In this document: in pieces, positions 1-15,463 of the stretch
Layout of the letters: each line of letters begins with the position of its first letter
Numbering within the stretch: the first letter of the stretch is position 1
Assembly (NCBI RefSeq): GCF_054482595.1
Contig: NZ_CM137008.1
Direction: 5' to 3' (one strand)
DNA: 64,000 bases
The notes under the pieces: model-generated
Database searches by the model: none
Seen by the model: the letters and a program-made list of their open reading frames with translations, nothing else
What the model was told of the DNA's origin: nothing
Translations under genes and position numbers: made by a program

Positions 1-431
1 AACTGGCTCGTAAAGAAGATATGCAACTGAGTGCTCATATTAACCCAGAGACATTTGACGTTGAGTTAATTGATGAGAAGGGATCTGTCATTAATCGTAA
101 GTTACTATCTGCCGGTGAAAAGCAGATTTATGCCATTGCTATTCTTGAGGCGCTAGCAAAAACTTCTGGTCGTGATTTGCCGGTGATTATTGATACGCCA
201 TTAGGACGTCTGGATTCACAACATCGGGATAAACTAATTAACCATTATTTCCCATTTGCCAGCCATCAAGTGGTGCTATTGTCTACCGATACGGAAGTGG
301 ATGAACGTTATTTTGTTGACCAATTACGTGATGATATTTCTCATGCTTACGAGATAGTATTTAACACGCATACTAAATCATCAGCGTTGAAGCCCGGTTA
401 TTTCTGGGAATTAACTAAGGAGGCTATCTGA
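1..431 (+). CDS. dndD: DNA phosphorothioation protein DndD, C-terminal part (gene starts upstream of window)
   Basis: Frame is open from position 1; translation contains SMC/ABC-type signature LSAGEKQ followed by D-loop-like IIDTPLGRLD, as remembered for DndD C-termini. Stop TGA at 429-431 overlaps the dndE ATG (TGATG). Confidence 0.75.
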   Translation, partial: LARKEDMQLSAHINPETFDVELIDEKGSVINRKLLSAGEKQIYAIAILEALAKTSGRDLPVIIDTPLGRLDSQHRDKLINHYFPFASHQVVLLSTDTEVDERYFVDQLRDDISHAYEIVFNTHTKSSALKPGYFWELTKEAI

Positions 432-787
432 TGCTCCCGAATCGAATGGTGCTGAATCGTCAGACTGAAGAGCAGCTTAAAAGATTGAAAGGGTATACAG
501 GGATCACACCTAATGTCGCTGCCCGATTGGCATTTTTCCGCTCGGTGGAGAGTGAGTTTCGCTATTCATCAGAACGGGATAATCGGAAACTAGATGGTTC
601 GCTGGTGTTGGATAAGATTACGTGGCTGGGGGAGACATTACAGACTACGGAATTGGTATTGAAGATGCTTTATCCGCAGTTAGCTCAGAAGGATATGGTT
701 AAAGCATGGGCTGCGCATGTGGAGGATGGGATTGCGGCGTTAAGGAATCATAAGAGTCTATTAAACTTTATTAAATCAATAGATTAA
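431..787 (+). CDS. dndE: DNA phosphorothioation protein DndE (118 aa)
   Basis: Small protein directly coupled to dndD; motif GITPNVAARLAFFRS resembles the DndE family; size and position are typical for dndE as last gene of dndBCDE. Confidence 0.7.
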   Translation: MLPNRMVLNRQTEEQLKRLKGYTGITPNVAARLAFFRSVESEFRYSSERDNRKLDGSLVLDKITWLGETLQTTELVLKMLYPQLAQKDMVKAWAAHVEDGIAALRNHKSLLNFIKSID

Positions 788-845: not shown

Positions 846-2006
846 TTAAAAATCTGTTTTGACATTTTCGTTTAAATAATCATATATTTTTCGCTGACCC
901 ACAGTTGTTGATGTATACTCTGTATTTTTTGTAAACTCCTCAGGATTCACAGTTTTCAATGCAGAGCACAGCTTTTCAATATTTTCTTTGTTAATTTTAG
1001 GCATGTCCATCAATTTTTTACGTAGAAACTGAAATAATGCAGAAATACCGACAGATCTAACTAACACTGTGCCTTTCTCAATACATACATTAGCCCAAAA
1101 ATGATCTTTTATCGCTGAAAAATAAATTTTCAATATTTGCTCTATCGCCTTATCATTGCCTTTTATATAAAACCATCGCAATGGGCTTTTATCCTTGCTG
1201 TTTTTATTATCAAGCCTGCCCCTTCCTTTTTCTTTTTCATCCGAATCAATTGCATTGATGGTATATCTATCAGCACGAGGGTTTTTAGATATTAGTGATA
1301 ATACACCATCAATAAATACAGACGATGATATAGACCAGTCATTTTCAGTAATTTCATTCAATACTCTATTTTTTAATCGTCTGTAGAAAGGATATTCATC
1401 TGTTTTATTAAATTTCTCACTAAAATATACAGCAAGCAAATCAGGAGGCCAATACTCTCTGGATATATCATCAAGAGAGTATCCAAAGAGTCTATATGCT
1501 AAACTTTTAGGAACTTTTTGTTGGTTAAAATTAATTGTTGAAAATATAGTTGCTTGATTGGATGGTGGTAATGAGTTATAAATTGAACAAGGTAATTGAA
1601 TATCTTTATTCTTAGCATACTTAAATCCTAATAATCTGTGCTGTCCATCGATAATAGAACATAATCTTAGATTTATATTCGGTATTATTATCTTATATAA
1701 TCAATTCTCACTTTTTTTAAACTCCCATTTGTCATCTTCCTTTGCAGGTGTACCATCTTCATTATGATTGACAGAGAGTATGATTGAGTTTGGAAATGCA
1801 GCCTCATCGGAGTCTATGAATTTTGCTATGTCTAAGGCTCTTGGCATAGACTCTTTCCTCTGCACACCTGATATTTCCCCATCATCCATTTCCGCCTGAT
1901 TCACATAAATACATTTCAATAAATCTTCGGCAGACATAACCGTCTGAAAGAATTCGCCGTATGGTTGGGTGACCTTAATTGCATGGATCTCAATAGAATT
2001 AGACAT
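846..2006 (-). pseudogene. DndB-like DGQHR-domain protein interrupted by an in-frame TGA (codon 102, plus-strand 1701-1703); possibly pseudogene, readthrough gene or sequencing error
   Basis: Minus-strand frame is continuous from ATG at 2006 to stop at 846-848 except for one TGA; N-terminal part has DndB-like AIKVTQPYGEFFQTVM and GVQR motifs, and the region just after the stop reads CSIIDGQHRLLGF (DGQHR signature). Very AT-rich. Confidence 0.65.
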
Positions 2007-2562: not shown

Positions 2563-5500
2563 TCAAAAAACAAGCTCCCAAAACGCTCTATCTCGCATCT
2601 TGCTAACCCGCTTATCCCCATCAACATACAGACTGAAATGTTTTTCAAGCTGCCGAATCTGCCCCATTAACGACTCCTGTTCGCCCTTATCATCCACGTT
2701 GAATACAGCCTTGATATCCGCATTTTTAATTTCGGACACACGATGAATAACCCAGGTTAGAATATATGAAGCGTAATTGTTCTCTCCAGTTTTGAAGTGG
2801 GTAATTTCCTGCGTTGACAGGATCGCTCCAACACCATATTCACGACCTTCCTTAAGGATCTTCCTCAGACTGGAAAAGTCCTGGCGCATAAAGTTATCTG
2901 CCTCATCCACCAGAATCATCTTGGTGAGCTGACGATAATCCCCCTGAATCACTGGCTTGCCGCGTTTTTGCATTTGTGCATAAAACAGATCCAGGGTTAG
3001 CGCAACCACCAGGTTTTGAATCTCTGATGAGTAGCCAGCCAATTCGATAACTGTGACACCATCCACCAGATCATACAGACTCGTCATTTTCTCTGGGTCT
3101 GTTTCAAATATCTGAAACCCAGCTAAGTTATAAAGCGCGGCGTACAATGAGTCTTCTTCTACTTTTTCCTGAGCCAGATATCGCTGCCACACATCTTCTA
3201 TGGTCGGTGCAACACGGTTCCAGGTTGAGCGATCATGAGGCACTATTCCTGCTAATTCATAGCACTCCATGATTAGCGTAACCAGTTTCATACGCTGTTT
3301 CACACCCAGGTTATAGGCTTTCCCCATTGTTTCAGAAAATGCGATTGCGGTATGTCTGGGTAACATGGGCATATCACCAAACAGTGACAAAGGGTTATAA
3401 GGTAGTAACGATAATTGATATTTCTTACCGCCAGTAGCCTTCAGAAAAGCCTCGTCCACATAGTCAGATTTATAATCAAAGATCAGTAAACCAATCGATT
3501 TTCCATCAACGTTACAGGATTGGTTACGCATTAATTGTGTCACCAGCGATTTGGTAAATTGCGTTTTCCCGGTCCCCATCGTACCGATGATGCCTGTGTT
3601 GGTATTCATAAACTTCGTGGTGTTGGTCGGTTCCCAGAATAACGGGGTTTGCCGTGTAGCGTCATGACCAAATAATACTTGTAAGGGTACAGTGCTGACC
3701 TCTGGTGTCGGCTTTGGAATATCAGGTCGTGTGTCTGGCGGTGTCGTTACCTGCACTCCCGATGCTGATGGAGATGGGTGCTCATCACTCTCTGGCTTCA
3801 GACGGTATTTATCTGGTACCCGGTAGCGTTCAGCCAATGGCAATTTACCTTCACGGGTAGTGATTAACGAGGATAGTAATGAATAAGGAATTTCGATCTG
3901 TAAGATATTCGCTGTCGTCTCTTTATAGGAGAGATCGAAGCAAGATCCGCTGTCTACATGTGCAACAACAAAGCCATTAGCATAGTCTTTTAACTCACCC
4001 AACTGATAGTCACCGGTCAACCACCATTCGCGGCGATCCAACAGGGGAGCCAGCTTATCACTGTCCAGCACACCGTACAGCTGAAGTTTCTCTACCTGCA
4101 TCAGCACCTGTCGAATAAAGAGCGCGCGATAAAGTTGCGATGCCAGTGTATGCGGCTCCAGAATATCCTGCTGTAAATAACGTTTAAGCTCAGCAGCCTG
4201 CTGGCCCGCATAGTTGTAATCTGGTCGAGCGCCGGTTTTGACTTCCAGCGGCAGTAAATAGAGACGGTTTTCTTTAAAACCAACAAAGAGCACATCATCA
4301 GAGATTGCGCCTTTACGGTACCCCTGTAGATTTCTTGATAAATCGCTTTCCTTCATCTTTAGCCCGACGTTACCAGATACGCGAATCATTTCGGCTACAG
4401 ATAGCGGTACCCAGCAGATATCAGACTCACTCAGCATGGACTGTACAAATTTATACGCGCCAATGATGCCATATTTCTCTTTGCGCTCTTTTTCACTGGA
4501 GCGCAACATCTTCAGCAACCACTCACCGTTAAAAGCATTAAATTCGGCAAGTAGATGCTGGCTATCAACGGCAGATTGCCCGGACTGGCTTTCGGTCTGG
4601 AGCAGGCGGAGGAATAGATCGACCTGCTTCGTTACCGTCACTGCATCGTAGCCTGCACAACTAGTGTACTGATCGGAATAGTGGATCAGCACAACATCTT
4701 TCTGGCTAGTAAAGAAGTCAAGAGTAACTTTAGGGTCAATAATGGTGGTCCAGAGTGCACTGTTGTAAGAATAATTGAGTAGCTGTTTAAAATTGCCGCT
4801 TACGGCCAATCCAATCCCTTGTCCGTGGTATTGACTGTTGCTCTGACGCGCTGGCTGCCACAGGCAGCCCACTAACCGGGCAAGTCGTAGAGCGCAGTAA
4901 GATTCAGTATCAACATTCCGCAGGCCAAACGCGGTAAAGTAAGCATCCCCCTGTGTTTCAGCTCCTTCTCCGGAAATCAGCCCATGACACAGTACACCGC
5001 TGGCAGCATCCTCAATGCGGATCTGGCGGCAATCCACCGGAGCTGTATTGGTGAAAAACGCCAAATGTGCATAGGCCAATTTGTCGCTTTCTGACGGCAG
5101 GACAAATTTGCTGAACGTTAACCGACTGCGTAACAGGTCAATCAGCATATCGGCCTCAGCTCGCCACGCACCGCGGTTCAGGTCAAGGTCGTTTTTAAGC
5201 TGTTCATAGCTGCCACTCTCGGCAAAGCGATCAAACATATTTGGCAGCAGGCGTTCATCGTAGCAATTTACATGCACCGAAATAGCATGCTCTTTTTCCT
5301 GCTTAAAATATTCCACTAACCCCAGAAACAGTTCTTTCGCTGTTCCCTGATTAATAGCATTAATAATCAATGCATTGTTTCCGGGACTCTGAAATAGCCG
5401 GGCGTAGGCTTCGGTAAATTCATTGAGCTTGTCTTTTACCAAACGTTTTACGTAATCGTGGCTCACCTGGCGCTGGGGAACGACATCGATCCAGAAGCGA

Positions 5501-7638
5501 TTTTCTTCCACCGGCTGCAACTGTGCGTATTCGTGTTCACTGTGGTAAACGAATGGCATCAAGCCGGACACCACCAGACGATCAAGCGTAATGGTCGGTA
5601 GTGTGGCAAATGACGCTGAGTCGTATTGTTCCTGCTCTGCGCAGATAGTTTGTACCAGTTGTAAATGGTAGGCCAACACTAGGGGATGCAACGGGGAGAG
5701 ACGTTCATGACTGTCGACATTACAAATACCCAGATGCAGCAGGCGCTTTTCCTGCGCTGTTAACGCTCTGCTCAACTCGATTTGTTGAAGCGCCTGTTCA
5801 AAGGTCGTCACTATATGGCTTACCAGCGCGCAGTATTCTGCTGACCACGATACTAGGCTAGGTAAAGTACCGCAGCGCTGGTAGTAGAGGAATAATTGGT
5901 CGTAGGCGTTATAGAGATCGGGGTGGATGGCAACGAGTTCATCCAGCGCAAACGCGCTATCGTCATCTCCTGTCCCCAAAAGACGTTGATCAACTAATGA
6001 GGCTTCCAGCGCCAGTAACTGCTGGCGAACACCGACAACCTTGTGTTCGGTATTATCAAGAATGATACGACCCTTCAATCGGTTCCAGGACGCATTCCCG
6101 TCTTCTTTGAACAGTTTATTGAAACGACTCTGGTCAAAAAGTAGCGGTAAGGTTAACCCTTCTTCGGCTCCCGGCCCTTCGATATTGAATGCCAGACAAG
6201 AATCACCTGAAACAAGCTTAAATTGGATCAGATCGCTTTGATTTGCCAGTGTTTCAAAATTCACCAATGCATAATGCTGGCAGTCAATATCACCATTTTC
6301 TTCATCCAGTATACAGACTTGGCTACCCGACTCAGCGATTCGTAGTTCGTTGTCTTCGCGTTGGAGTGTGATTTGTGGTTTACCTGGCTCGATACGGAAA
6401 CAATGCTGAATATCGTCTAGCCAGAATTGTCCTTGTCTGACCAGTAACAGGCGGAACTTGTACTCTTCGGCTGAATTATTGCGATTAGTCAGTTCGAGGC
6501 TAAAGAAGCAGGGATTCCCATCGAAAGGAACCGACGCCATAATACGGGAGCTTTTACCCCCTGCACGACTAATTCGCCAGAAACGCTCTTTTTTTAACTG
6601 ACGATGATGCGCAATTTTTATCTGGTTATCCTGAAGATCGTTGCCCTGAAAGCAAAACTCCAGCTCAGTTTGCGATTGTTCGGGTGGTACCTGTACCAGT
6701 AGGCTGATATCGCGCTTGCCTGCTTTACTTGCGCTTTTCGCCCGTTGCCAAATCACGCCATTTTCGACCGTGATATCATCCAGTACCAGTTTTTGTTCGC
6801 GGTTCTGTTCTTTTTCGTTTAGATAAACAGCGAAATCAAGCTCGCGCCAGTCGTCTTTATCATTGAAATGTTCCTGAATAAATTTGGCGCTGAATTCAGT
6901 TAATACGTTCTCCAGTTGCCCACTGTAGCGTTCAACGCTGTCCTCGATTTGACGAAATAACTTCCTGTTTTCATTCAGTCGGGTATGGAGCTGTTTCTGG
7001 CTAAAATTCAGTAGTTCATCATCTTTAAACAGCGATAGCTCGGAGAAATCCAGATTGCCGTCATCCAGCAGGCGATACAACGACGAGAAGCCAAATACGG
7101 TCGCACCTTCATCCAGTACCGTTGTTCGTTGATCCTTTAATAAGCAACGCGACAACTCTGAACGGTTGTTGTCCGTCGTGATCAACTTTTCCAATTCATG
7201 ACTGAAGGTTTCGGGGTGCCAGATAGCTCCCGGTGCCGCGACGTCTTTTGTGCTGTTAATCAGGGTGTCCAGCATGCTGTTATGAATAATCAGCAGTGCA
7301 GTTTTGGCAAACACCCCGCTGCGGCCAGCAACTTCATCGCGTAAATGGGATATGTAGTTTTCCGTGAATGCTGGCGCTGCGGCTCCGTGCAGCACCGGAA
7401 TAAGCTGAATACCATTACAGGAGAGACAGGCAAGGCGCTGCTCTGGCGCAATTTCCAGATGATTGTCACCTGCCAGGTCAACAAAAGCCTGCCAGAGTTG
7501 TAGAGCATTGTCAGGGTCAGGAGATTTAAACTGGTAACGCTCACCAGGTTGAATAATGCCACTAACCCATTCAATAAAGGTTTCCGCCAGATAGGTTTCA
7601 TACTGTTTTACGGACATACACGGCGTCTCCACTGTCAC
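2563..7638 (-). CDS. dptH: DptH/DndH-like large ATPase/helicase-type protein of the phosphorothioate-dependent restriction module (1691 aa)
   Basis: 5076-bp ORF with Walker A (GIIGTMGTGKTQF) and Walker B-like (ILVDEADNF) motifs; third gene of a three-gene operon adjacent to dndDE; gene sizes match what I recall for dptFGH of Salmonella/E. coli dnd islands. Start may be the downstream ATG at 7617. Confidence 0.75.
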   Translation of the reverse strand: MTVETPCMSVKQYETYLAETFIEWVSGIIQPGERYQFKSPDPDNALQLWQAFVDLAGDNHLEIAPEQRLACLSCNGIQLIPVLHGAAAPAFTENYISHLRDEVAGRSGVFAKTALLIIHNSMLDTLINSTKDVAAPGAIWHPETFSHELEKLITTDNNRSELSRCLLKDQRTTVLDEGATVFGFSSLYRLLDDGNLDFSELSLFKDDELLNFSQKQLHTRLNENRKLFRQIEDSVERYSGQLENVLTEFSAKFIQEHFNDKDDWRELDFAVYLNEKEQNREQKLVLDDITVENGVIWQRAKSASKAGKRDISLLVQVPPEQSQTELEFCFQGNDLQDNQIKIAHHRQLKKERFWRISRAGGKSSRIMASVPFDGNPCFFSLELTNRNNSAEEYKFRLLLVRQGQFWLDDIQHCFRIEPGKPQITLQREDNELRIAESGSQVCILDEENGDIDCQHYALVNFETLANQSDLIQFKLVSGDSCLAFNIEGPGAEEGLTLPLLFDQSRFNKLFKEDGNASWNRLKGRIILDNTEHKVVGVRQQLLALEASLVDQRLLGTGDDDSAFALDELVAIHPDLYNAYDQLFLYYQRCGTLPSLVSWSAEYCALVSHIVTTFEQALQQIELSRALTAQEKRLLHLGICNVDSHERLSPLHPLVLAYHLQLVQTICAEQEQYDSASFATLPTITLDRLVVSGLMPFVYHSEHEYAQLQPVEENRFWIDVVPQRQVSHDYVKRLVKDKLNEFTEAYARLFQSPGNNALIINAINQGTAKELFLGLVEYFKQEKEHAISVHVNCYDERLLPNMFDRFAESGSYEQLKNDLDLNRGAWRAEADMLIDLLRSRLTFSKFVLPSESDKLAYAHLAFFTNTAPVDCRQIRIEDAASGVLCHGLISGEGAETQGDAYFTAFGLRNVDTESYCALRLARLVGCLWQPARQSNSQYHGQGIGLAVSGNFKQLLNYSYNSALWTTIIDPKVTLDFFTSQKDVVLIHYSDQYTSCAGYDAVTVTKQVDLFLRLLQTESQSGQSAVDSQHLLAEFNAFNGEWLLKMLRSSEKERKEKYGIIGAYKFVQSMLSESDICWVPLSVAEMIRVSGNVGLKMKESDLSRNLQGYRKGAISDDVLFVGFKENRLYLLPLEVKTGARPDYNYAGQQAAELKRYLQQDILEPHTLASQLYRALFIRQVLMQVEKLQLYGVLDSDKLAPLLDRREWWLTGDYQLGELKDYANGFVVAHVDSGSCFDLSYKETTANILQIEIPYSLLSSLITTREGKLPLAERYRVPDKYRLKPESDEHPSPSASGVQVTTPPDTRPDIPKPTPEVSTVPLQVLFGHDATRQTPLFWEPTNTTKFMNTNTGIIGTMGTGKTQFTKSLVTQLMRNQSCNVDGKSIGLLIFDYKSDYVDEAFLKATGGKKYQLSLLPYNPLSLFGDMPMLPRHTAIAFSETMGKAYNLGVKQRMKLVTLIMECYELAGIVPHDRSTWNRVAPTIEDVWQRYLAQEKVEEDSLYAALYNLAGFQIFETDPEKMTSLYDLVDGVTVIELAGYSSEIQNLVVALTLDLFYAQMQKRGKPVIQGDYRQLTKMILVDEADNFMRQDFSSLRKILKEGREYGVGAILSTQEITHFKTGENNYASYILTWVIHRVSEIKNADIKAVFNVDDKGEQESLMGQIRQLEKHFSLYVDGDKRVSKMRDRAFWELVF

Positions 7639-8923
7639 TCATTCGCTCCACATTTCCCATACGTTCATAAAACGCTACCAGCGTTTGTGCCGACTGGTTA
7701 TCCAGATAAAATCCGCGCTGTTCAAAGCCGCGCAGCAACTCATGCAGGCGTAGTTTGTCATTTTTACCCACAGTGAGATTGGTCAGCAGCAGCAGACGAT
7801 CCTGATTCAGTACCAGTACTTTTCCCGCCCGACCACGTACCTGAATGAAATCGGTGCAGATCTGGGTTTCAAGCTCGTTGATGTATTTCCGGTTAACTGT
7901 CGCACGATCAGATTTCTTATCCTGAAACTGTTCAACAGCAACGGTTAATAATTGTTTAAAAGCTTCTTCCAGCGTAACGGCTTGCGTATACTTCGATGCC
8001 GAAAGCTCGCGTTTTTCGATAAACTCCTGCAAATAATTATTGAGATCTTGCAGTAATTGAGATGAGTTATCAGAAAAATTTAAGCAATCCTGATAGACCT
8101 GCCAGAGTGGACGCTTCTTATCTCCTTTTATTTGTAGAACTTCCAGCGCGGAGAGTATTGGGAAAAGTTTTTCACTTTGACGAGCGAACCACTTATAACC
8201 AAAGCGTTTTATTTGATCCCGTTCAGAACTGGCTTTTTCAGTGTCGAGAATAAAGAAAAGCGACTTACTTTGTGGCTCGCCGTCCTGCCAGTTGTCCAGA
8301 TTGAGCGCTAGCTGGGCACACCAGCTAAAGGCATATAAACGCAGAGTATTAGTCAGTTCTTGTAACAAATATTGAGGGTGTTCTGCCAAAAACGCCAGAT
8401 CAGACTGAAAACAAGTCACCAGATAGGGAAGGTAGGGTTGTTCTTCAGAGAATGGGCCTTTTCCCAATAACTTTATTTTTTCATTGAGCTTATTTAGCAT
8501 TTGCTGCTCAATGAAGTTCAGCTTATCCTGGATAGGATATTCCAAGCTGAAATCTCCCATTAGATTAGCAAACAGAGTGCCAAGGCGTTTATCGGCCATT
8601 GAAGCGCCACTTATTTTTTCGCCATCAAACTGAGCATGAAATAGTAAAAAAAGCGGAGATACACGAAAGATATCTTCACTGGAAAAATACATCCGTTCCA
8701 GTACAGTCCAGAATGCTGGTTCATCAAGCAATTCTTGCAAATGAGCCTTGCAATCATCGCGAAATTGACTGGGAGTATAGGCATCAATTTTACGCTTCAG
8801 GGCGTAACTAAGCACCAATCCGGTGACAAATTGCCAGTTAATATCATTGTTTTTGTTACGTATCGGCAGATAACTATCCAGTTGATTATTACCTACTTTT
8901 AACGTCGTTGCGATAGGGTACAT
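7598..8923 (-). CDS. dptG: DptG/DndG-like protein (441 aa)
   Basis: 1326-bp ORF between dptF and dptH on the same strand, 4-nt gap from dptF stop; size and context match dptG. Confidence 0.7.
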   Translation of the reverse strand: MYPIATTLKVGNNQLDSYLPIRNKNNDINWQFVTGLVLSYALKRKIDAYTPSQFRDDCKAHLQELLDEPAFWTVLERMYFSSEDIFRVSPLFLLFHAQFDGEKISGASMADKRLGTLFANLMGDFSLEYPIQDKLNFIEQQMLNKLNEKIKLLGKGPFSEEQPYLPYLVTCFQSDLAFLAEHPQYLLQELTNTLRLYAFSWCAQLALNLDNWQDGEPQSKSLFFILDTEKASSERDQIKRFGYKWFARQSEKLFPILSALEVLQIKGDKKRPLWQVYQDCLNFSDNSSQLLQDLNNYLQEFIEKRELSASKYTQAVTLEEAFKQLLTVAVEQFQDKKSDRATVNRKYINELETQICTDFIQVRGRAGKVLVLNQDRLLLLTNLTVGKNDKLRLHELLRGFEQRGFYLDNQSAQTLVAFYERMGNVERMSDSGDAVYVRKTV

Positions 8924-8927
8924 TCCA

Positions 8928-10577
8928 CTAACCCTCCATACCGCTAATGGTGATCATGTCGTCGTCCGCTTTAGCGCGATAAACTCGCCGCCCACCAGCA
9001 TAAAACTTGATTTCGCTGCTGGATTTGGCCTGTTCAGTAATCAAATCAACGATTTCGTCCAGTAGAACAATGGCATTTTTATCGTATTTATTGGGGCGAT
9101 AGCCATTGTTTAATTTGTTCAAAAGTTCAAATAAATTAAGTCCGATACGAACTGGTAACAGAGAGTTTTGCCCAACTTTTAAATGCACGTCGAAGCCAGT
9201 AGGGTGGGCCGTATTTTTATTGCGGATGGCCTCCCAGTCAGGTTTCAATTCGACTGGCGCGGTTATTTTTACCCCACCATATTCACCTAAAAAGAACTCT
9301 TCTTTTTGCATACTCAATTCCGGCGCTTTGCGGTTTGCATAGCGCTGAATACCAGCAATAAGTTCGGATGTATAAAACCGGTTCAGTGCTTTTTTCTGCT
9401 CTGAGTCAGCGATGTAATTTTTGTGCAGATGCCAGATTTCTGAATAATGCTCAAATAAAGATTCATTGAAGAATACGGAAAATTTCTGATGATAATTATT
9501 CCCCAGAGATTCATCCTGCAGCAACCAGAAGAGCCGAATTAATGAAGCCGCATCACCCGGATTAACGCACTGGCGATCAAATCTAATGTGTAATGGCGCG
9601 AGTGCAGCTAAAAAATCATCCAGTTCAGGGTCAACCAGGCCCAATTCGTAGCGCAAAATAAACTGATCGATTTCATAGGTGTGCAGCCTAGCAGGATCAA
9701 AATCAGAAACTTTTTTAATCAGGTCGTTTTCTGCCCCAGTGAAAAGATTATCAAATAAATACCCCGGCCCCATAAGCAAATGATGCAGAAAATCCAATAG
9801 AGTTCGGGTTGTCACAAACTGATCTTTAATCAGGCGGGCCTTAAAGAGCTGAGTGATGAGAACATCCTGAACACCCGGCAGACAAAGTAATTTATAGTTA
9901 GCAACTTCTTTCAGCTCAGGGTTAACGGTCTCATCATGTCGAAAAATAAACTGAAACAAATTACTATCATCATTACGGGTTAAATTATCCAGTAATGTTT
10001 TAATAAACGATGAATACTGTTTTTTTTCATTAAACTGGAATTTAGGGTAATGCTCAAAGTCAAAAAAAGAACAATGCCCACTGCGGTATGGGCGGCTTTC
10101 TTCCTGATCTGCTGACAAGAAAGAATCGATCGCAGTGCGGATCGCCAGATGGCATTCAGCACCTTCTCTGGCAAAATTGGCGAGCATCCCGGTATTGATG
10201 CCTATAAGCAAAGGAGATGAGTATTGGTGATGATTGCTAAATAAATCATTTAAAGCATCAATAGCTGATTGCCGGGGAGCAAAGCTGTGTGTTGCATCCA
10301 GATGAAAACTAAAGCGCTGCTGATAACGAGGGTTTGACTTACAACGGGTCAAAATTTCGGACTTTCCATCACCACTACTGCCACACAAAAAGATGATTTC
10401 ACCGGGCTTAGCAACATCCAGATAACGTTGCAGCTCAGTTTCAATTTCTTGTTTAACAAAGAGTTGTTCTTTTAACTGATCGAACTCATCCTTTTGACGA
10501 TGCGTTACCGTGGTTACGGAAAACGAAGATGACTTCGCAAGTACACCCAACGCTTTACGTAATGTGATTGCGCTCAT
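8928..10577 (-). CDS. dptF: DptF/DndF-like P-loop ATPase (549 aa)
   Basis: 1650-bp ORF with Walker A-like motif FLCGSSGDGKSEI; first gene of the operon, preceded by an AT-rich 5' region. Confidence 0.7.
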   Translation of the reverse strand: MSAITLRKALGVLAKSSSFSVTTVTHRQKDEFDQLKEQLFVKQEIETELQRYLDVAKPGEIIFLCGSSGDGKSEILTRCKSNPRYQQRFSFHLDATHSFAPRQSAIDALNDLFSNHHQYSSPLLIGINTGMLANFAREGAECHLAIRTAIDSFLSADQEESRPYRSGHCSFFDFEHYPKFQFNEKKQYSSFIKTLLDNLTRNDDSNLFQFIFRHDETVNPELKEVANYKLLCLPGVQDVLITQLFKARLIKDQFVTTRTLLDFLHHLLMGPGYLFDNLFTGAENDLIKKVSDFDPARLHTYEIDQFILRYELGLVDPELDDFLAALAPLHIRFDRQCVNPGDAASLIRLFWLLQDESLGNNYHQKFSVFFNESLFEHYSEIWHLHKNYIADSEQKKALNRFYTSELIAGIQRYANRKAPELSMQKEEFFLGEYGGVKITAPVELKPDWEAIRNKNTAHPTGFDVHLKVGQNSLLPVRIGLNLFELLNKLNNGYRPNKYDKNAIVLLDEIVDLITEQAKSSSEIKFYAGGRRVYRAKADDDMITISGMEG

Positions 10578-13926: not shown

Positions 13927-15192
13927 TTACTGTTTTAATGGATTATTAATCTTTGCATATTCAAATGGACTGATAAATTTTTCTCTGTTTGCATCCAGAA
14001 AATCGGCCCACCATTGTAGCATCAAGCGGCGTTCTTCCAGATGCTCTGCTTTATGGATATACGCGGCCCTCACTGAATTTCGCTCCATGTGGCTCATCTG
14101 ACGTTCAACAGCATCACGAGACCACAAACCTGATTCGACCAATGAACTACAGGCCATTGTTCGAAAGCCATGACCACAAACCTCTACTTTTGTATCATAC
14201 CCCATGACCCGTAACGCACTATTTACCGTATTCTCACTCATGGGTTTGTGCGAATCGTGATCACCAATAAATATCAAGTCATGGGCCCCACAAAACTGTT
14301 TTATCTGCTTTAAAATTGCAAGAGCTTGCGTTGAAAGAGGCACTAGATGCGTTGTACGCATTTTTGAGCCTCTATGGGAATGTTTCACTCCAGGAATAGG
14401 CTCCCGCTCCGGTGGGATAGTCCATATAGACGCTTCGAAATCGATCTCTGACCAACGAGCAAAACGCAGCTCACTGGACCGAATAAAGATCAGCAAAGAG
14501 AGTTCTGTCGCCCATCGGGTTAGCGGCCTACCAGTATAGCTATCTATTTTTGTAAGCAACTCAGGGATGCGCTTTAATTCAAGCGCGGGACGATGTTGTC
14601 GATTACAGGAAGCAACCGCCCCAGCCATCTCTTGTGCCGGGTTATAATCAATTAACCCACTTTGCACTGCATAGCGCATGATGGCTGTAGTGCGCTGCTG
14701 AAGACGAGCGGCCACTTCAAGACGTCCAGACATTTCTACGGCCTTAATGGGTGCTAATAAATCTCGAGTTTTTAACTCAGCGATATTACGTTCACCAAGC
14801 GCTGCAAAAAGATTATCTTCCAGACTTTTTAGCACACGATGGGCGTGATCTTCAGACCACTTTTTATTGGTGCCATGCCACTCAATCGCGACTTCTTTAA
14901 AGGTTCGTGCTTTACTCTGTTCAACCTTATCATTTTTCTTTTTGTCTCCCGGATCGACGCCATTCGCAAGCAGCTTACGCGCCTCGTCACGACGTACTCT
15001 GGCATCCGCTAGTGTGATTTCAGGATAAACCCCAAGTGCCAGCATTTTTTGCTTTCCCTCATAACGGTACTGCAAACGCCAGTACTTAGAACCATTTGGA
15101 TGGACAAGCAGATGCATACCGCCACCATCAGTCAGCTTATATTGCTTATCCGTTGGCTTGGCTGCTCTGACTTTGATATCTGTTAATGCCAT
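13927..15192 (-). CDS. intB: P4-type tyrosine recombinase/integrase (IntB-like, 421 aa)
   Basis: Translation MALTDIKVRAAKPTDKQYKLTDGGGMHLLVHPNGSKYWRLQYRY... is a typical P4-family integrase N-terminus, with C-terminal catalytic region motifs (HGFR, Y near the C-terminus); start is adjacent to the 3' end of tRNA-Leu. Confidence 0.85.
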   Translation of the reverse strand: MALTDIKVRAAKPTDKQYKLTDGGGMHLLVHPNGSKYWRLQYRYEGKQKMLALGVYPEITLADARVRRDEARKLLANGVDPGDKKKNDKVEQSKARTFKEVAIEWHGTNKKWSEDHAHRVLKSLEDNLFAALGERNIAELKTRDLLAPIKAVEMSGRLEVAARLQQRTTAIMRYAVQSGLIDYNPAQEMAGAVASCNRQHRPALELKRIPELLTKIDSYTGRPLTRWATELSLLIFIRSSELRFARWSEIDFEASIWTIPPEREPIPGVKHSHRGSKMRTTHLVPLSTQALAILKQIKQFCGAHDLIFIGDHDSHKPMSENTVNSALRVMGYDTKVEVCGHGFRTMACSSLVESGLWSRDAVERQMSHMERNSVRAAYIHKAEHLEERRLMLQWWADFLDANREKFISPFEYAKINNPLKQ

Positions 15193-15378: not shown

Positions 15379-15463
15379 TGGTGCCGAAGGCCGGACTCGA
15401 ACCGGCACGTATTTCTACGGTTGATTTTGAATCAACTGCGTCTACCGATTTCGCCACTTCGGC
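15379..15463 (-). tRNA. leuX: tRNA-Leu (anticodon CAA), leuX
   Basis: Minus-strand 85-nt sequence GCCGAAGTGGCGAAATCGGTAGACGCAGTTGATTCAAAATCAACCGTAGAAATACGTGCCGGTTCGAGTCCGGCCTTCGGCACCA, recognised as leuX with encoded CCA; P4-type integrase immediately 3'. Confidence 0.9.

Follow-up and report, generated by a model that had tools for sequence, protein, structure and literature searches.

A derived in-frame TGA codon probably inactivates the last gene of the dptFGH operon in a leuX-inserted phosphorothioation island of Escherichia coli

DndB is a DGQHR-motif protein that regulates the dndBCDE genes (PMC4507180). In Salmonella enterica Cerro 87 a further gene, dndI, is co-transcribed after dndFGH (PMC4198939, PMC11662687); its 1971-bp open reading frame encodes a PT-sensing DUF262 NTPase joined to a DUF1524 HNH nickase, and the DndI protein harms cells that lack PT modification (PMC11662687). 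The NCBIfam family TIGR04172, "DNA phosphorothioation-associated DGQHR protein 1" (DGQHR_dnd_1), is defined as a hypothetical equivalog with a curated cut-off of 450 bits. No experimental function for this family was found in the searchable literature, and among the papers that mention 'DGQHR' none deals with its role. Here, we describe an E. coli locus that, on the sequence evidence, is a member gene of this family, referred to below as DGQHR-1, and at which the copy analysed is a broken member. We consider it likely (probability about 0.87) that an in-frame TGA at codon 102 is a genuine derived nonsense mutation, GGA (Gly102) to TGA, that inactivates this last gene of the dptFGH operon in a dnd/dpt island at leuX.

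The window, by which we mean the whole 64,000-nucleotide stretch of DNA that was analysed, is E. coli chromosome and has 100% matches in many complete genomes. It contains a dnd/dpt phosphorothioation island, inserted at leuX, whose features are listed in Table 1. The dptF, dptG, dptH and dndE genes are full length and score above their family cut-offs. The operon runs dptF-dptG-dptH, then the gene for a small membrane protein (4-TM), and then DGQHR-1, whose ATG (2006-2004) directly abuts the TAA of the 4-TM gene. Because DGQHR-1 stands last, its interruption has no polar effect on dptFGH, and dptFGH and dndE are unaffected. In the interval 800-2600 the GC content of the 4-TM and DGQHR-1 genes is 30-35%, versus 45-50% for dptH, which suggests that these two genes form a cassette of separate origin, at the position that dndI occupies in Salmonella Cerro 87. 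Two more genes of the island, one for a 263-aa Adr-like protein and the other for a 499-aa phosphoethanolamine-transferase-like protein, separate dptF from the integrase gene. A 9-bp GC-rich inverted repeat (GGCCATCCA ... TGGATGGCC) with an 11-nt loop, located at 797-825 where DGQHR-1 and dndE converge, may be a shared terminator; it is without a T-run and was not scored by the terminator scan, which detected no canonical intrinsic terminator in 700-2700.

Table 1. Features of the island and of the interrupted DGQHR-1 gene, in window coordinates
Feature	Position	Strand	Basis or remark
dndD, 3' end	1-431	+	ORF/annotation
dndE, convergent with DGQHR-1	431..787	+	TIGR03184, 77.9 bits, cut-off 71.85
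C-terminal remnant, same frame, 284 codons + stop 848-846	846..1700	-	TIGR04172 positions 100-381
First in-frame canonical start (TTG) past the stop	1437..1439	-	ORF 846..1439
DGQHR motif, GAT GGA CAG CAC AGA, residues 120-124	1635..1649	-	homologue alignment
Premature stop TGA, codon 102 of DGQHR-1	1701..1703	-	translation; GGA in intact alleles
A7 homopolymer	1712..1718	-	sequence
N-terminal fragment ORF, 101 codons	1704..2006	-	TIGR04172 positions 1-97
4-TM upstream partner, 172 aa, about four predicted TM helices	2007..2525	-	ORF, TM prediction
dptH, intact, 1691 aa	2563..7638	-	TIGR03237, 1206 bits, cut-off 620.65
dptG, intact, 441 aa	7598..8923	-	TIGR03236, 309 bits
dptF, intact, 549 aa	8928..10577	-	TIGR03238, 454 bits
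P4-type integrase gene	13927-15192		marks island end
tRNA-Leu(CAA)	15379-15463		marks island end at leuX

The minus-strand frame from 2006 to 846 comprises 387 codons with a single internal stop; between the ATG at 2006 and its closing stop it offers 386 positions for sense codons. The original prediction had placed a split at 1695-1709, and the TGA does lie within that interval, in the context ...DDKWEFKKSEN-stop-LYKIIIPNINLRLCSIIDGQHRLLGF... of the minus-strand translation. The break is a nonsense codon and not a frameshift, as had been proposed, with homologous sequence in the same frame on both sides and GGA at this codon in the intact allele. The last A of the A7 run falls 9 nt upstream of the T of the TGA, at the predicted spacing, and the absence of any in-frame ATG, GTG or TTG between the stop and 1439 is likewise borne out by the list of open reading frames. 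The stop precedes the DGQHR motif by 18 codons, so that the 101-aa product lacks the motif; a product started at the TTG, which lies downstream of the motif, would be 197 aa long and would lack it as well.

Both pieces of the interrupted frame belong to one family model. Against TIGR04172 the 101-aa N-terminal piece scores 115.8 bits and the 284-aa C-terminal piece 343 bits (cut-off 450), and the two matches are contiguous, with no change of frame between them, so that chance resemblance does not account for the split. The intact allele of E. coli NDM3 aligns to positions 1-381 of the 381 in the model at 476.2 bits, above the cut-off. For the DGQHR domain model TIGR03187 (cut-off 58.85 bits), the intact protein scores 165.2, the C-terminal remnant 102.3 and the N-terminal fragment 56.9, below the cut-off. 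The DGQHR motif is invariant in all 114 aligned homologues. The dnd association that belongs to the definition of TIGR04172 is found as well, with DGQHR-1 located between dptFGH and dndE-D-C-B in E. coli, Raoultella, Salmonella and Vibrio; in Spirosoma it adjoins dndC-D-E.

The description of this gene as DndB-like stands at the level of the superfamily but not for DndB itself. The Pfam DndB match (PF14072) is confined to residues 8-171 and aligns the first half of the model, whereas the NCBIfam models of DndB do not match DGQHR-1, and a BLASTP comparison with the DndB of a related island gave a best E value of 0.024, not significant beyond the motif. An origin as a recent duplicate of dndB was considered and rejected, BLASTP yielding nothing significant. 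Location separates the two genes too: dndB belongs to dndBCDE, with the true dndB lying beyond dndC, whereas DGQHR-1 is part of the restriction operon. For these reasons the label 'DndB' that RefSeq gives to the 101-aa fragment is misleading.

DGQHR-1 has 386 aa, and its N-terminal domain is ParB/sulfiredoxin-like. In an AlphaFold2 model (65-sequence alignment, mean pLDDT 87), residue 102 is situated in a beta-turn between strands 95-98 and 104-108, and the following strand, 116-120, leads into the DGQHR loop; the break thus falls inside a single ParB-like domain. The 101-aa product keeps 7 of the 34 invariant residues of the family. In the mechanism that we propose, translation would end after 101 residues, partway through this domain and ahead of the DGQHR loop; the product would be without the conserved core, and the remaining 284 codons, having no canonical start, would be a decaying remnant. 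From this we infer a loss of DGQHR-1 function.

Comparison with DndI brings out both likeness and difference. The two genes share an operon position, after dptH and convergent with dndE, and both proteins possess a ParB-superfamily N-terminal domain. DndI, however, has a C-terminal HNH nuclease, while DGQHR-1, at 386 aa, has no nuclease domain detectable by Pfam or NCBIfam and is accompanied by a separate 4-TM protein. Identity with Salmonella DndI was rejected, the DUF262 and DUF1524 architecture of its 1971-bp frame marking a different gene, and DGQHR-1 with its membrane partner is a different cassette in the operon position of DndI. An SspE-type PT-sensing nuclease was also rejected (Foldseek match to SspE 6jiv, E = 2.9; nuclease domain absent). 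A weak likeness to DpdB of the 7-deazaguanine Dpd system covers the N-terminal ~210 residues (NF041060, 81.4 bits; PADLOC DpdB, E = 3.3e-21), but 81.4 bits is far under the 300-bit cut-off and no dpd genes are present nearby. This was the sole PADLOC similarity for DGQHR-1, and the 4-TM protein matched nothing in PADLOC or NCBIfam; a sequence search of the PDB gave a single, irrelevant match, the repeat protein Crov539 (E = 0.0017). By analogy with DndB, SspE and DndI, the two genes plausibly encode a component that senses DNA or PT in an NTP-dependent way and a membrane protein to which it is coupled.

At all the loci compared, those of Raoultella, Salmonella, Vibrio cholerae and Spirosoma included, a small multi-TM protein is encoded just ahead of DGQHR-1. 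In Vibrio cholerae (7293-9001 of that locus) an extra ScoMcrA-like SBD-HNH gene is found between dptH and the membrane-protein gene. At the Spirosoma locus (3440-8989), which lacks dptFGH, the two-gene module of membrane protein and DGQHR-1 comes after genes for an SNF2 helicase, a second SMC-like ATPase and dnd_assoc_4; it is thus not tied to DptFGH. The RefSeq name of the 4-TM protein, 'accessory gene regulator B family protein', derives from a weak Pfam AgrB match to the TM region alone (E = 3.6e-5, 23.6 bits), and a variant of it with Ser at residue 112 is named just 'hypothetical protein'.

Intact relatives establish the direction of the change. In E. coli NDM3 the 1161-bp gene is uninterrupted and is annotated by RefSeq as 'DNA phosphorothioation-associated DGQHR protein 1'. 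This intact allele is 99.6% identical to the window, with six differing positions over the 1680 bp of the 4-TM and DGQHR-1 genes, and its DGQHR protein differs solely at residue 102, where GGA (Gly) stands in place of TGA and allows the frame to read through. The orthologues of Raoultella terrigena (91% amino-acid identity, codon 102 GGA) and Salmonella enterica (81%, GAT) are likewise intact at 386 aa, and they occupy the same layout as in the window, dptFGH / 4-TM / DGQHR-1 converging on dndEDCB. The genes of two more divergent E. coli island types are also intact, at 404 and 383 aa. Lengths of 340-430 aa are found for 113 of the 120 best homologues from the protein database; at position 102 their alignment varies among the sense residues D, N, G, S, E and C, with a stop in none of the 113, and orthologues that end here as a stand-alone short gene occur nowhere outside this E. 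coli allele lineage. The sense codons in NDM3, Raoultella and Salmonella make TGA the derived state, a G to T change of the minus-strand base at window position 1703. These orthologous loci thus favour a recent inactivating mutation, the first of three explanations originally offered.

The second of those explanations, an error of sequencing or assembly in which a wrong base at 1703 conceals a sense codon, drew on the nearby A7 run, homopolymers being error-prone. The frequency of the allele speaks against it. Searching 5426 complete E. coli genomes with 61-mers centred on codon 102 identified an allele class in 124 of them, with TGA in 109 (88%) and GGA in 15. The exact TGA 61-mer occurred in 106 genomes, sequenced independently of one another, and TGA with a 1-nt deletion in another 3; all 15 GGA genomes held the exact GGA 61-mer. 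In a collection of 15 billion proteins, at least 1000 contigs encode exactly the 101-aa fragment and 705 exactly the intact 386-aa protein. Moreover, the change is a substitution and not an indel, and it is linked to a second derived SNP at 2191. An error is therefore, in practical terms, refuted. TGA carriers include O157:H7 86-24 and ATCC 43888, strain 55989 and an APEC O78:H4 strain, as well as isolates of human, pig, poultry, cattle, dog and water origin from several continents. Most E. coli strains bearing this island, among them O157:H7 86-24 and 55989, are accordingly without an intact DGQHR-1, which ST167-type and some other strains keep.

Sampled haplotypes were rooted with two outgroups, Raoultella and Salmonella. 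The intact alleles make up several haplotypes, of which RM8082 lies nearest the root, the EM03-18-08 type comes next and the NDM3 type after that. Two derived changes are common to all four TGA alleles sampled, the stop at Gly102 and a Ser112Leu substitution in the 4-TM protein (2191, C to T), for which the sampled intact alleles and both outgroups have TCA (Ser) and the TGA alleles TTA (Leu). This pattern fits a single origin of TGA, in which the codon and the linked Ser112Leu of the membrane partner would have appeared on one EM03-18-08-like haplotype; the TGA allele is now the predominant one among E. coli that carry this island. Identity of at least 99.7% across very different E. coli lineages points to horizontal spread of the island.

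Secondary lesions are found on the TGA background. A contraction of A7 to A6 at 1718 is present in BY68 and 537-20 (and, by deduction, in BY63), all of which have TGA; the A6 allele gives a 105-aa product, and the occurrence of this product on 108 contigs marks A6 as a real sub-allele. The two TGA haplotypes on which A6 is found, those of BY68 and 537-20, differ at 2457 and 2291, reflecting either recurrent slippage or recombination between alleles. In strain tcmA_3, which has the TGA allele, an IS1 insertion lies within the remnant. Second lesions thus occur on the TGA background alone, in 4 of 109 genomes versus 0 of 15, counts too small for significance; they are consistent with relaxed constraint but not statistically decisive. 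Against the reading of TGA as a null stands the C-terminal remnant, which is almost undamaged. The ingroup substitutions in the DGQHR-1 gene are synonymous (1803, 1644, 1410 and 1083), save T384I at 856 in RM8082, and within the sampled TGA clade the sole substitution in this gene is the synonymous one at 1410, carried by the window. An event of very recent date, or some remaining constraint, could account for so undamaged a remnant.

RefSeq (PGAP) presents the interval 846-2006 (3615-4775 in the RefSeq locus) as two coding sequences and does not flag a pseudogene. The 101-aa fragment is named 'DNA sulfur modification protein DndB' or 'ParB N-terminal domain-containing protein', and the remnant is a 281-aa 'DGQHR domain-containing protein' that begins at an ATA at 1691. 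Taken at face value, this annotation of a very common allele would describe a functional fission, in which the 101-aa piece acts as one subunit and the C-terminal piece, with translation resumed at a non-canonical codon, as another, and ATA, ATT and ATC codons are indeed available 9-50 nt past the stop. Nevertheless, the canonical starts ATG, GTG and TTG are absent before 1439, and inspection by eye of the AT-rich sequence near the ATA reveals no AGGAGG-type Shine-Dalgarno motif. The remnant products in various records are 281, 268, 255, 253, 251 or 241 aa long, and such disagreement indicates that no start is defined. In addition, the break lies inside one domain, the protein is a single polypeptide in all other sampled taxa, and the A6 frameshift and the IS1 insertion have accumulated on this allele. 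We therefore consider fission very unlikely. The two annotated genes are in reality a single one that a premature stop interrupts, and counts of DndB copies or of defence genes in E. coli that draw on the annotation are misled.

Full-length protein could also be made by design, were the UGA read as selenocysteine or bypassed by programmed readthrough; leaky readthrough was the third explanation originally offered. E. coli has selenocysteine machinery, the remnant frame is still open, and five distant homologues have Cys in aligned column 102. The nearest relatives, however, have Gly or Asp at this position, and no orthologue contains the stop. A selenocysteine insertion (SECIS) element was sought and rejected: the 88 nt at 1625-1712 of the minus strand fold at -10.1 kcal/mol, no better than shuffled sequences (z = 0.13), and an Rfam scan by E-value of 800-2700 gave no match. 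The base immediately after the TGA is U, and UGA-U reportedly ranks among the UGA contexts that terminate more efficiently in E. coli. Nor does a frameshift at the A7 run bypass the stop, since one alternative frame reads AAG-UGA and the other KKVRIDYIR-stop, both ending within 1-9 codons. Recoding by design is in our estimate extremely improbable. For leaky readthrough, too, no support was found; background near-cognate decoding of UGA by tRNA-Trp may yield a trace of full-length protein, for which nothing indicates programming, and because position 102 is variable, such a readthrough product might fold.

The prevalence of the inactivated allele raises the question of selection. A refinement of the nonsense reading, and not an alternative to it, is that the null and the Ser112Leu change in the membrane partner were selected as an adaptive loss, the 4-TM/DGQHR-1 module being costly or self-toxic in parallel with DndI. 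Consistent with this, the null is present in 88% of the complete genomes with the island, in very different serotypes and hosts; it is linked to a derived non-synonymous change in the partner gene; and DndI, whose gene takes this operon position in Salmonella, is toxic when PT modification is missing (PMC11662687). On the other hand, the frequency would be explained equally well by a founder effect, or by hitch-hiking on a variant of the island that was successful, and the intact allele is itself abundant, on 705 contigs. We regard adaptive loss as rather unlikely. A further proposal, distinctly improbable in our judgement, is that TGA and Ser112Leu together represent a selected down-tuning of a PT-associated sensor/membrane-effector module, by residual UGA readthrough or by complete loss; if it were true, natural pairs of TGA and GGA strains would be a ready-made test of the role of the module. 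As an inactivating mutation, the TGA is a nonsense polymorphism in an accessory gene, which is ordinary, and the main value of recognizing so widespread a pseudogene lies in annotation and in the choice of strains. TGA and GGA strains nonetheless offer natural, isogenic-like material for studying the 4-TM and DGQHR-1 module. A decay pattern opposite to that of the window is seen in E. coli 16843 (1-1226 of that locus), in which DGQHR-1 is intact and the IS4-like element ISVsa5, directly upstream of it, has replaced the 4-TM gene and dptH.
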